Origin: Nitrospinaceae bacterium
GTDB lineage: Bacteria > Nitrospinota > Nitrospinia > Nitrospinales > VA-1
Assembly: GCA_029261595.1 (NCBI GenBank)
Contig: JAJDAZ010000012.1
Location: 11,325 to 75,324, forward strand
Reading direction: 5' to 3'
DNA length: 64,000 nucleotides
In this document: in pieces, positions 33,885 through 34,704 of the stretch
How the letters are laid out: the number at the start of each line of letters is the position of its first letter
Position numbering within the stretch: position 1 is the first letter of the stretch
Made by a program: the position numbers and the translations under genes
The notes under the pieces: generated by a model
The model's database searches: none
Seen by the model: the letters and a program-made list of their open reading frames with translations, nothing else
Told to the model about the DNA's origin: nothing

Positions 33885-33900
33885 ACACAATATATAGCGG
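33885..33900 (+). promoter_or_regulatory. NrdR-box-like site upstream of the wHTH-tRNA cassette
   Basis: ACACAATATATAGCGG is a close match to acaCwAtATaTwGtgt; no clear second box found. Confidence 0.5.
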
Positions 33901-33933
33901 TGTGTATAGCGCCATATCACAATTGAAGCCATG

Positions 33934-33962
33934 TTGTACTTTCTGCTAATTTTTGTTATATT
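33934..33962 (+). promoter_or_regulatory. Sigma70-type promoter for the wHTH-tRNA cassette
   Basis: TTGTAC-17 bp-TATATT with an extended -10 TG, about 40 bp before ATG 34000. Confidence 0.6.
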
Positions 33963-33999
33963 GTTTAGAGGAACTATAACATCTTCGAGGGCAAACTAA

Positions 34000-34446
34000 A
34001 TGAAAACGGAACGGCTTAAGGCTGCTGTCCATGAGTTGGAAGAATTAAAACGTGAACAGGAAGACGATCTTAAAAAAACCGAAAGATTGATTTCCGAATT
34101 AAAACAATTGGCGGGTATTCCAGATGTTGAAGCAGTGCCTGTTAACTCTGCTTCCCTTTTAAGTGCATTAGGGCTGGGGAGAAAAGAAACTTACGTTGAA
34201 ATAGCTTTGAGATTGCTTAGGCAAGCCGGGCGTCCTTTACATGTTAATGAAATTGTAGCAGAAATTGAGAGAGAGAAAGGACTTTCCAAAGGCTCTATTA
34301 CTAGGGCTTCAGTACAAACAAGCCTAGGTCGCTATATGGAAAAAACTGGAAAAATATTTAAACCACAACCGGCAAAATTCCAATTGCGAGAAAAGGAGCA
34401 AAATAAAAATGCTCCGCAAGATGTCTCTCGCGGAGCAAATTCATAA
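34000..34446 (+). CDS. Small coiled-coil plus winged helix-turn-helix protein (HARE-HTH-like)
   Basis: N-terminal heptads (LKAAVHELEELKREQEDDLKKTERLISEL), then TYVEIALRLLRQAGRPLHVNEIVAEI...SVQTSLGR...IFKPQPAKFQL. AT-rich codon usage; GAGG RBS. Confidence 0.7.
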   Translation: MKTERLKAAVHELEELKREQEDDLKKTERLISELKQLAGIPDVEAVPVNSASLLSALGLGRKETYVEIALRLLRQAGRPLHVNEIVAEIEREKGLSKGSITRASVQTSLGRYMEKTGKIFKPQPAKFQLREKEQNKNAPQDVSRGANS

Positions 34447-34452
34447 TCTGGT

Positions 34453-34525
34453 GTCCCCGTAGCTAAATGGCTAAGGCACTTTCTTTGCACGGAAGGTATT
34501 CCCGGTTCAATTCCGGGCGGGGACT
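34453..34525 (+). tRNA. Atypical tRNA with UGC (Ala) anticodon but non-Ala acceptor stem
   Basis: Acceptor GTCCCCG/CGGGGAC, U8-A9, D loop with GG, anticodon arm CTTTC-TTTGCAC-GGAAG, T arm CCCGG-TTCAATT-CCGGG. C3-G70 and U73 instead of G3:U70 and A73. Confidence 0.8.
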
Positions 34526-34542
34526 CTCCAAACTAAAACAAT

Positions 34543-34626
34543 GCGGGTGTGGTGGAATTGGTAAACACAGTGGTCTTTAAAACCACCGGCTCCTAGGCCT
34601 TGTGGGTTCGAGTCCCACCGCCCGCA
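34543..34626 (+). tRNA. Leu-type (long variable arm) tRNA with UUA anticodon; putative ochre suppressor
   Basis: Acceptor GCGGGTG/CGCCCGC + A73, D arm GGTGGAATTGGTAAACAC, anticodon arm GTGGT-CTTTAAA-ACCAC, variable arm GGC-TCCTAG-GCC, T arm GTGGG-TTCGAGT-CCCAC. CCA not encoded. Confidence 0.85.
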
Positions 34627-34665
34627 CACACCACACTACCTTTAGCTTTTTGTTGGGTCAATTTA

Positions 34666-34704
34666 GCTTTTTAGTACTTTTTGATACTTTTTGATACTTT
34701 TTCA
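34666..34704. repeat. 10 bp tandem T-tract repeats
   Basis: gctttttag, then tactttttga, tactttttga, tactttttca. Confidence 0.65.

Follow-up and report, generated by a model that had tools for sequence, protein, structure and literature searches.

Natural transfer RNAs (tRNAs) whose anticodon is uncoupled from their amino acid identity are rare, and the described examples, namely the allo-tRNAs, tRNAProX and the suppressor tRNAs of phages, have changed views of the rigidity of the genetic code and supplied tools for engineering it. Suppressor tRNAs have been described in phages (10.1101/2021.08.26.457843, PMC10879173). The allo-tRNAs are natural bacterial tRNAs with a mismatch between anticodon and amino acid identity, some of which read UAA, and irregular polycistrons of nonsense- and missense-suppressor-like tRNAs have been found near small regulatory or toxin–antitoxin loci (PMC5389517). 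The tRNAProX of Streptomyces and Kitasatospora combine a Pro-type body with an Ala, Asn or Thr anticodon, and are genetically encoded and conserved (PMC11415595). Here, we describe a locus from a Nitrospinaceae bacterium at which two identity-mismatched tRNAs lie side by side, self-contained within 1 kb. It was studied in a stretch of 64,000 nucleotides (nt), hereafter the window, which corresponds to positions 11325–75324 of contig C12 (JAJDAZ010000012.1) of a 3.78-Mb genome (G000; GCA_029261595.1) assembled in 71 contigs from a biofilm metagenome, with a completeness of 90.7%.

The element in question is an AT-richer variable block of 985 nt (33750–34734, assigned to neither strand), which extends from the stop codon of the ribonucleotide reductase gene nrdJ to the 3′ end of an FGE-type gene and codes for a winged-helix protein of 148 amino acids (aa) followed by two tRNAs. 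We lean towards the view that this cassette represents two acquired tRNAs, redirected to UAA and alanine codons and cotranscribed with a DNA-binding protein, and that it is cargo derived from a phage or mobile element that would bring about low-level or conditional recoding.

Both RNAs are recognized as full tRNAs. ARAGORN calls tRNA1 at 34453–34526 (plus strand, anticodon tgc) and tRNA2 at 34543–34627 (plus strand, tta), 16 nt apart, and they match Rfam RF00005 at 55.9 and 61.9 bits, respectively, against a gathering score of 29, covering the full model (1–71 of 71) on the plus strand only. The first base of tRNA1 is the seventh after the TAA stop codon of the protein gene (34444–34446), with 6 nt in between. 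In the Rfam alignment, the acceptor stems are 7 bp and the T stems 5 bp long in both, and each retains the T-loop along with U8, A14, G18–G19, U33 and a purine in position 37. Neither gene encodes the CCA end, and the same holds for many host tRNA genes. An earlier note on this DNA, made from the sequence alone, had seen two tandem tRNAs starting 7 nt after the stop of the open reading frame (ORF), with anticodons that do not match their bodies; ARAGORN and Rfam bear out the pair, and the mismatch is evident in the C3:G70 and U73 of tRNA1 and in the long variable arm and A73 that accompany the CUUUAAA loop of tRNA2. Genes on the opposite strand were considered as another source of the matches and ruled out, as the tRNA calls are on the plus strand only and the sole minus-strand match is to Plastid-ycf2 and, at 31.8 bits, stays under the threshold of 65.7.

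The body of tRNA1 is of the tRNA-Cys type. Its acceptor stem (GUCCCCG/CGGGGAC) has a C3:G70 pair and the discriminator U73, and its D and T arms, with an A13/A22 mismatch in the D stem, are Cys-type in an alignment with eight canonical tRNA-Cys. We compared it with a reference set of 607 distinct tRNAs, which is biased in that a search pattern derived from tRNA1 itself supplied many of its loci. U73 is present in 20 of the 20 distinct tRNA-Cys of this set, and, with the anticodon loop removed, tRNA-Cys account for 11 of the 30 nearest neighbors of tRNA1, the sole “Ala” neighbors being two odd relatives considered below. The pattern of its D-stem end and T arm was found at 21 metagenome loci, 12 of which are tRNA-Cys(GCA) and none tRNA-Ala; without the loop, tRNA1 is 75–78% identical to the tRNA-Cys of unrelated metagenome bacteria. 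This body carries the loop UUUGCAC with the anticodon UGC, a regular decoding loop that is the same as in four canonical tRNA-Ala(UGC) of the set. The GCA triplet lies at positions 35–37, one position 3′ of its place in the aligned tRNA-Cys. The tRNA-Ala(GGC) of the host has G3:U70 and A73, as do 16 of the 18 tRNA-Ala that are not of the odd type among the 21 distinct tRNA-Ala calls of the set. Alanyl-tRNA synthetase (AlaRS) identifies its substrates by a G3:U70 pair in the acceptor stem together with A73, and cysteinyl-tRNA synthetase (CysRS) normally needs GCA at positions 34–36. tRNA1 thus has the U73 and body of a tRNA-Cys without GCA at 34–36, and has neither the G3:U70 nor the A73 of a tRNA-Ala; as it lacks G3:U70, the established identity rule excludes it as a substrate of AlaRS. 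As judged from its sequence, tRNA1 joins a body of the Cys type to a loop of the Ala(UGC) type. That it might be the normal tRNA-Ala of the phylum is ruled out by the G3:U70 of the host tRNA-Ala(GGC) and by the presence of the odd type in only 3 of 120 phylum genomes.

The second RNA, tRNA2, is a class-II tRNA with the features of a leucyl-tRNA synthetase (LeuRS) substrate, namely a long variable arm of 14 nt, A73 and the D arm of bacterial tRNA-Leu. A73 is found in 107 of the 108 tRNA-Leu(UAA) of the reference set, and the usual loop of these tRNAs is CUUAAAA (again 107 of 108), from which the CUUUAAA of tRNA2 (anticodon UUA) deviates at the middle anticodon base only. The loop sits on a fully paired 5-bp stem (GUGGU/ACCAC) and, with seven nucleotides, U33 and a purine at 37, has the form of an ochre suppressor. 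With the loop removed, all 30 of the nearest bodies are tRNA-Leu or tRNA(UUA), the nearest relative being a viral tRNA(UUA) at locus L017 (80–85%), and phage GenBank records match tRNA2 as ordinary annotated tRNA-Leu only (76–80%). LeuRS does not read the anticodon; given this and its Leu-type body, tRNA2 is expected to be a leucine-inserting ochre (UAA) suppressor.

The host keeps its canonical tRNA-Gly(GCC) and tRNA-Cys(GCA) as a pair on contig C9 and its tRNA-Leu(UAA) on contig C3. The canonical Gly–Cys pair was found in five genomes (G000, G005, G031, G054 and G058), and the arrangement of the phylum is this tandem with tRNA-Leu(UAA) elsewhere. Whereas the canonical tRNA-Cys of the phylum are 89–100% alike, the odd Cys-type tRNAs are only 61–72% like them. 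Taken together, these comparisons indicate that both cassette tRNAs are supernumerary and foreign. Consistent with the same range, a recent duplication of the host tRNA-Cys is ruled out as the origin of tRNA1 by its 65% identity to that gene. A point that escaped the first reading of this DNA is that the pair is of a Cys-then-Leu tandem type common in other bacteria: in 5 of 12 metagenome tRNA-Cys loci, a tRNA-Leu(UAA) directly follows the tRNA-Cys(GCA) within about 60–200 nt, so that the cassette reproduces a gene order that is common elsewhere and not seen in the phylum. Escherichia coli, too, carries a Gly–Cys–Leu tRNA operon. The cassette pair shares the order, spacing and body types of an ordinary tRNA-Cys(GCA)–tRNA-Leu(UAA) tandem but differs from it in both anticodons, with GCA displaced by one position to give UGC and the middle base of UAA changed to give UUA.

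As to the tRNA complement of G000 at large, ARAGORN reports 43 tRNA genes in this genome of 90.7% completeness, among which tRNA-Ser, tRNA-Asn, tRNA-Ile and a canonical tRNA-Ala(UGC) are missing. Two of the calls look spurious, namely a 94-nt “Val(aac)” on contig C2 and a “Leu(aag)” on C18, and an identical tRNA-Lys(UUU)–tRNA-Glu(UUC) pair occurs at C12:79876–80063 and C39:43314–43501, which might be a duplication or reflect redundant contigs.

Relatives of the two tRNAs were collected separately. A pattern in which CUUUAAA comes at a fixed distance after the Leu-type D arm has 10 matches across 2.9 million IMG/VR contigs, and 7 of the matches are tRNA(UUA) genes, as compared to at least 120 IMG/VR matches for the same pattern with the ordinary Leu(UAA) loop. 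Across the eight Leu-type tRNA(UUA), including that of the window, changes on both sides keep the pairing in 12 of 19 pairs. Set against 71 ordinary viral tRNA-Leu(UAA) among the matches listed, most of the eight are nearest to one another, the exception being L018, to which an ordinary tRNA-Leu(UAA) is closest among the same matches. We accordingly assign tRNA2, by sequence relationship, to a distinct phage-associated tRNA(UUA) family. Its viral members lie amid phage genes, e.g., a terminase (L022), a methylase (L021), a DUF4326 protein (L019) and many ORFs without relatives (ORFans), and no second confident tRNA was found at the viral tRNA(UUA) loci. We saw no UAA recoding in the seven viral contigs, their ORFs being long under the standard code, by an ORF-length comparison that is crude and uninformative in high-GC DNA. 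Just upstream of the tRNA(UUA) of L017 is a weak tRNA-like element (329–460, minus strand; 29.6 bits) whose T arm is normal, whose loop contains UUGC and which seems to bear an insertion. Within the phylum, the Leu-type UUA pattern corresponds to a tRNA in only 1 of the 120 genomes, the match in G108 containing no tRNA. There is further a Leu-type fragment in G033 (L002, contig C17, about 1499–1577, minus strand) that is 82% like tRNA2, has the loop CUUUCAA (anticodon UUC) and lacks a matching 3′ acceptor strand; it resembles a relative in decay, again with an anticodon that does not fit its body.

The odd Cys-type tRNA with an alanine anticodon is found in 3 of the 120 phylum genomes: G000 and G031 with UGC, and G058 with CGC. 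The G058 version has G3:C70 and U73 as read from its sequence, and the G031 version lies in an AT-rich stretch of ORFans. Among the three Cys-type bodies, 9 of 22 pairs are changed on both sides and still paired. Patterns of the tRNA1 type recovered no such tRNA from viral sequences, where three loci had no tRNA call and two others were Arg and Gln tRNAs. A shifted-Cys pattern, for which a positive control recovers the window and G031 and misses G058, was found in 0 of 401 genomes of a second phylum. The earlier note had argued that two adjacent tRNAs with intact stems look more like selection than random decay, and the intact stems and compensatory changes seen among the relatives support this.

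Comparison with relatives shows the cassette to be an insertion. On its 5′ side is nrdJ (ORF 30123–33749), coding for a class II ribonucleotide reductase (Pfam Ribonuc_red_lgC, 2.8e-128, with Ribonuc_red_2_N and TSCPD); on its 3′ side is a gene for an FGE-sulfatase-domain protein (Pfam; 34716–35630) on the opposite strand. In G005, a genome of the same genus, the two genes are 86% and 81% identical to those of the window and adjoin each other, separated by some 300 nt of unrelated sequence, and the cassette DNA and the 148-aa protein are found in 0 of 5 same-genus genomes. G001 and G004 likewise lack synteny in the stretch 3′ of nrdJ. Sequencing run X2 contains a contig, from a related strain, that joins position 33749 to 34735 through 145 other letters, and one from run X3 follows the window up to 33749 and then passes into letters like those of the G005 spacer. 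An assembly artefact is ruled out, as contigs from runs X1 and X2 bridge 33629–34922 and 33651–34915 with 0 differences, though these runs may be the source samples. The G005 spacer together with the X2/X3 and the bridging X1/X2 contigs thus sets the variable block at 33750–34734, 985 nt. Hence, 33750–34734 is an insertion with defined boundaries, probably of horizontally acquired DNA. Runs X2 and X3 also indicate that a cassette-free related strain or species, with many substitutions in the flanking genes, shares the same biofilm samples.

The composition of the block is in keeping with this: the GC content is 0.35–0.42 over 33700–34500, versus 0.53–0.59 in nrdJ, 0.58–0.64 in the downstream gene and 0.483 in the whole genome. 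A terminator-like element with a 15-pair hairpin (33796–33832, loop of 7) followed by GTTTTTTTGT was detected by the terminator scan after nrdJ (33796–33842, plus strand) and lies inside the variable block. The 148-aa ORF is its only substantial ORF, and no integrase or recombinase gene was found in it. Neither was a convincing flanking duplication of an attachment (att) site; the best direct repeat matches at 24 of 32 positions, a level reached by 2 of 100 shuffles, and a 10-nt repeat (CGCAACGGAA) that occurs on both sides of the block lies within conserved coding sequence, including in G005. With neither an integrase or recombinase nor a flanking att duplication, the block is not a prophage or integrative element by the usual definition. 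On all these counts, the AT-richer DNA after the nrdJ terminator and the lack of an integrase and att duplication described in the earlier note hold up, and the comparison of the nrdJ locus in relatives that it proposed shows the cassette to be absent from the same-genus G005 and from a co-occurring relative, both with an unrelated short spacer.

The protein encoded upstream of the tRNAs (34000–34446, plus strand) is predicted from the ORF list, Pfam and AlphaFold (AF2) to have a long, coiled-coil-like N-terminal helix, a linker and a C-terminal HARE-type winged helix. Residues 64–131 match HARE-HTH (PF05066) with an E-value of 4.2e-9 and 37.1 bits, above the cut-off of 25.9, and thus place it in this family. 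The AlphaFold model, built on 13 family members, has a mean predicted local distance difference test score of 83.6 and shows a helix at 2–38, a poorly ordered linker and the winged helix at 65–129. The ORF list, HARE-HTH match and model together confirm the coiled-coil and winged-helix gene that had been read here at 34000–34446. The Foldseek matches are weak, with none at E ≤ 1e-3, and the top ones are to the DNA-binding domain of Rok, the RNA polymerase delta subunit and Z-alpha; the match to Rok (5zuz) has an E-value of 1.3e-3, template modeling (TM) scores of 0.35/0.48 and a root mean square deviation of 8.5. With RNA polymerase delta, a HARE-HTH protein, and Rok, it shares the winged-helix family and the plan of an oligomerizing helix, linker and C-terminal winged helix. 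It has no acidic tail such as that of RNA polymerase delta, and its resemblance to Rok is limited to the overall architecture. Membership in the Rok-type nucleoid-associated proteins was considered and rejected, since the match to WH_Rok (PF23159) is 14.5 bits versus a cut-off of 27.6. The helix–linker–winged-helix plan is typical of nucleoid-associated or regulatory proteins encoded on acquired DNA. On the strength of the predicted fold, the 148-aa product is a probable DNA-binding protein. The family is small: a search of 1.84 billion representatives yields 24 members at E ≤ 1e-3, the majority 120–150 aa long and built on the same plan. A k-mer protein search matched only the protein itself, the protein atlas returned only unnamed clusters, and PHROGs gave nothing significant for it. 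The gene is AT-richer than its surroundings in G000, G054 and G058.

The association of this protein with odd tRNAs recurs, if only once. The protein family is found in 5 of the 120 phylum genomes, and a tRNA is nearby at 2 of these 5 loci (G000 and G058). In G058, about 300 nt separate a 142-aa homologue from an odd tRNA on its 3′ side, both on the same strand and amid housekeeping genes (RelA/SpoT, RecG and NUDIX). Given that 5 of 120 genomes have the protein and 3 of 120 the odd tRNA, their adjoining in two genomes is unlikely to be chance, yet two cases do not make a rule. The proposal of the earlier note that the gene and tRNAs form a new system is hence supported by one independent recurrence in G058 but not by a regular one (2 of 5 and 0 of 14 loci), and the finding that it had named as telling against such a system, homologues without downstream tRNAs, holds for 3 of 5 phylum loci and all 14 in the second phylum. 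Downstream of the tRNA(CGC) of G058 (L029, about 850–960, minus strand), there is also a short ORF after a GGAGG ribosome-binding site, whose product would be very basic and rich in Lys, Pro and Arg, with a Cys near both ends.

How might the cassette work? The terminator scan found no terminator between the ORF and the tRNAs, and all three are therefore probably on one transcript. We envisage that the gene and both tRNAs would be made as this single transcript, from which RNase P and 3′ processing would free tRNA1 and tRNA2. tRNA2 would take leucine and insert it at UAA stop codons, whereas tRNA1 might either accept cysteine, probably poorly, and then decode the GCN codons of alanine, or stay uncharged for the most part. 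Most likely, the winged-helix protein binds the AT-rich DNA of the cassette, thereby setting its expression level. As a net effect, stop codons would be read through and alanine possibly replaced by cysteine, at a low level or conditionally, and the cassette would represent phage- or mobile-element-derived cargo rather than a core host function. Two further features of the DNA concern its transcription. The final codons of the ORF contain a hairpin (34410–34437; found by the terminator scan and as inverted repeat I1) that is terminator-like on the minus strand only, where it has a T-run, and that could halt antisense transcripts running from the FGE gene across both tRNAs. Three tandem 10-nt units (TACTTTTTGA, TACTTTTTGA and TACTTTTTCA; 34675–34704, plus strand, read from the sequence) are found 3′ of tRNA2; they belong to a repeat family, D1, that also matches 33927–33958 at 24 of 32 positions, and may be a candidate protein-binding or transcript-end region.

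Several observations weigh against this reading. The link between protein and tRNA is mostly absent: no tRNA was found within 1.5 kb of the homologues in G054, G049 and G029, nor of any of the 14 homologues from the 401 genomes of the second phylum, where the matches are weaker and mostly at the domain level, so that 17 of 19 homologue loci are without a nearby tRNA. Conversely, no HARE-HTH gene is near the odd tRNA of G031, the 94-aa ORF upstream of which is unrelated to the protein, and neither the HARE-HTH protein nor a Cys-type partner tRNA is found at any of the 7 viral tRNA(UUA) loci. Since the pattern used to collect the tRNA(UUA) set requires the loop, conservation of the loop within it is by construction. 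That such genes do decay is evident from the degraded Leu-like copy in G033. A scan for the sigma-70 consensus found no promoter upstream of the ORF (no site between 33850 and 34000), and the promoter of its own with which the cassette had been credited was thereby not recovered. As CysRS needs GCA at 34–36, the charging of tRNA1 is doubtful. Finally, TAA ends 580 of 1472 long ORFs in G000 (about 39%), and being so common a stop would make an efficient ochre suppressor costly, favoring weak expression or inactivity. This TAA load fits a low-level or self-controlled cassette and an inactive relic equally well. As a crude measure, confounded by non-coding frames, we also counted same-frame neighboring open frames (≥120 codons) and found 230 of 466 to be joined by TAA.

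The same observations raise the question of whether the genes do anything at all. They could be inert leftovers of a foreign phage or island, with neutral anticodon mutations in disused tRNA genes and the protein an unrelated hitch-hiker. The sporadic spread (the odd Cys-type tRNA in 3 and the Leu-type UUA pattern tRNA in 1 of 120 genomes), the decayed G033 copy with its broken acceptor stem and the absence of a detected promoter are what such a history would leave, as is TAA being a common stop, given that an active suppressor should be selected against. However, both genes score as true tRNAs with every conserved tertiary position intact, and relatives at 63–85% identity keep their stems by compensatory changes together with the same unusual anticodon class. 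Their loops are well formed (pyrimidine 32, U33 and A37), that of tRNA1 being a genuine tRNA-Ala(UGC) loop, and the tRNA(UUA) genes form a family rather than scattered tRNA-Leu mutants among the matches listed. We therefore regard inert relics as unlikely, and even if the tRNAs were inactive, the locus would still be a clear example of the acquisition and retargeting of foreign tRNA genes. At the other extreme, the locus could be a mobile recoding cassette in the full sense, in which the HARE-type protein controls a UAA suppressor and a Cys-bodied tRNA for alanine codons that, once induced, would alter translation proteome-wide, acting as a tRNA-based toxin, an abortive-infection device or a switch for mistranslation under stress. 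We hold this bolder version to be quite unlikely; were it true, the lineage with a Cys body and Ala anticodon would add a class to the known natural mistranslating tRNAs.

A related idea is that of a conditional toxic-tRNA module, akin to toxin–antitoxin or abortive-infection systems, in which the protein represses the locus until phage DNA or stress releases the tRNAs, which then halt growth through read-through and miscoding at alanine codons. The gene and tRNAs do look like one unit with no terminator between them, and a member of the protein family again precedes the same odd tRNA type in G058; moreover, polycistrons of suppressor and missense tRNAs lie near toxin–antitoxin loci, and an induced mismatched tRNA was lethal in E. 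coli (PMC5389517). However, tRNAs are missing from the vicinity of most homologues of the protein, and no defense genes were recognized in the flanks examined, the neighbors being housekeeping genes, which makes a toxic module very doubtful. Least probable in our estimation, and highly unlikely, is a role outside translation, an idea of the earlier note, whereby the RNAs would be processed regulatory RNAs or would serve as decoys or sponges that occupy modification enzymes, synthetases or nucleases directed at tRNAs. Altered anticodon loops on otherwise authentic bodies, the phage-borne relatives of tRNA2 and the possibility that tRNA1 is a poor substrate for any synthetase would suit a decoy; but the loops are canonical decoding loops rather than disrupted ones, phage tRNAs that evade anticodon nucleases generally keep their decoding identity, unlike these, and neither the ORF list nor Pfam shows a nuclease, other partner gene or synthetase gene in or beside the block. 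Nothing links the RNAs of the cassette to anticodon nucleases, and the connection to them drawn in the earlier note is thus not supported. Our preference accordingly remains with a retargeted tRNA pair effecting low-level or conditional recoding.

Beyond the FGE gene, a second AT-richer stretch (35800–37506 of the window, GC 0.40–0.45) contains a 429-aa ORF (36217–37506) with no Pfam match.

The described systems establish that natural suppressor and identity-mismatched tRNAs exist, a few of them being active and toxic upon expression. In relation to these systems, we found no report of phage recoding of UAA in the literature searched, nor a description there of a Cys-type tRNA with an alanine anticodon, though supplementary tables, e.g., those of PMC5389517, may list similar ones. 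Like the phage suppressor tRNAs, tRNA2 is likewise a predicted suppressor, and its nearest relatives (80–85%) are tRNA(UUA) on seven IMG/VR contigs amid phage genes. It differs from them in targeting UAA with a Leu-type identity, whereas the described phage cases target UAG or UGA, and its gene is in a bacterial chromosome without phage genes. The allo-tRNAs have 8/4 or 9/3 acceptor and T stems and Ser or Ala identity (PMC5389517), whereas the cassette tRNAs are 7/5 cloverleaves of Leu and Cys type. With a 7-bp acceptor and a 5-bp T stem, neither can be counted among the allo-tRNAs. In tRNAProX, the body and anticodon are of different identities, as in tRNA1 (PMC11415595, PMC10404621); however, the tRNAProX of these sources have A33, A15–A48 and often a dedicated ProRSx, while tRNA1 has a normal U33, is Cys-type and has no synthetase gene nearby. 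The cassette thus differs from phage suppressors, allo-tRNAs and tRNAProX alike in combining regular 7/5 cloverleaves, Cys and Leu bodies, the targeting of UAA and alanine codons, a tandem derived from a Cys–Leu pair and a HARE-HTH gene in front of it.

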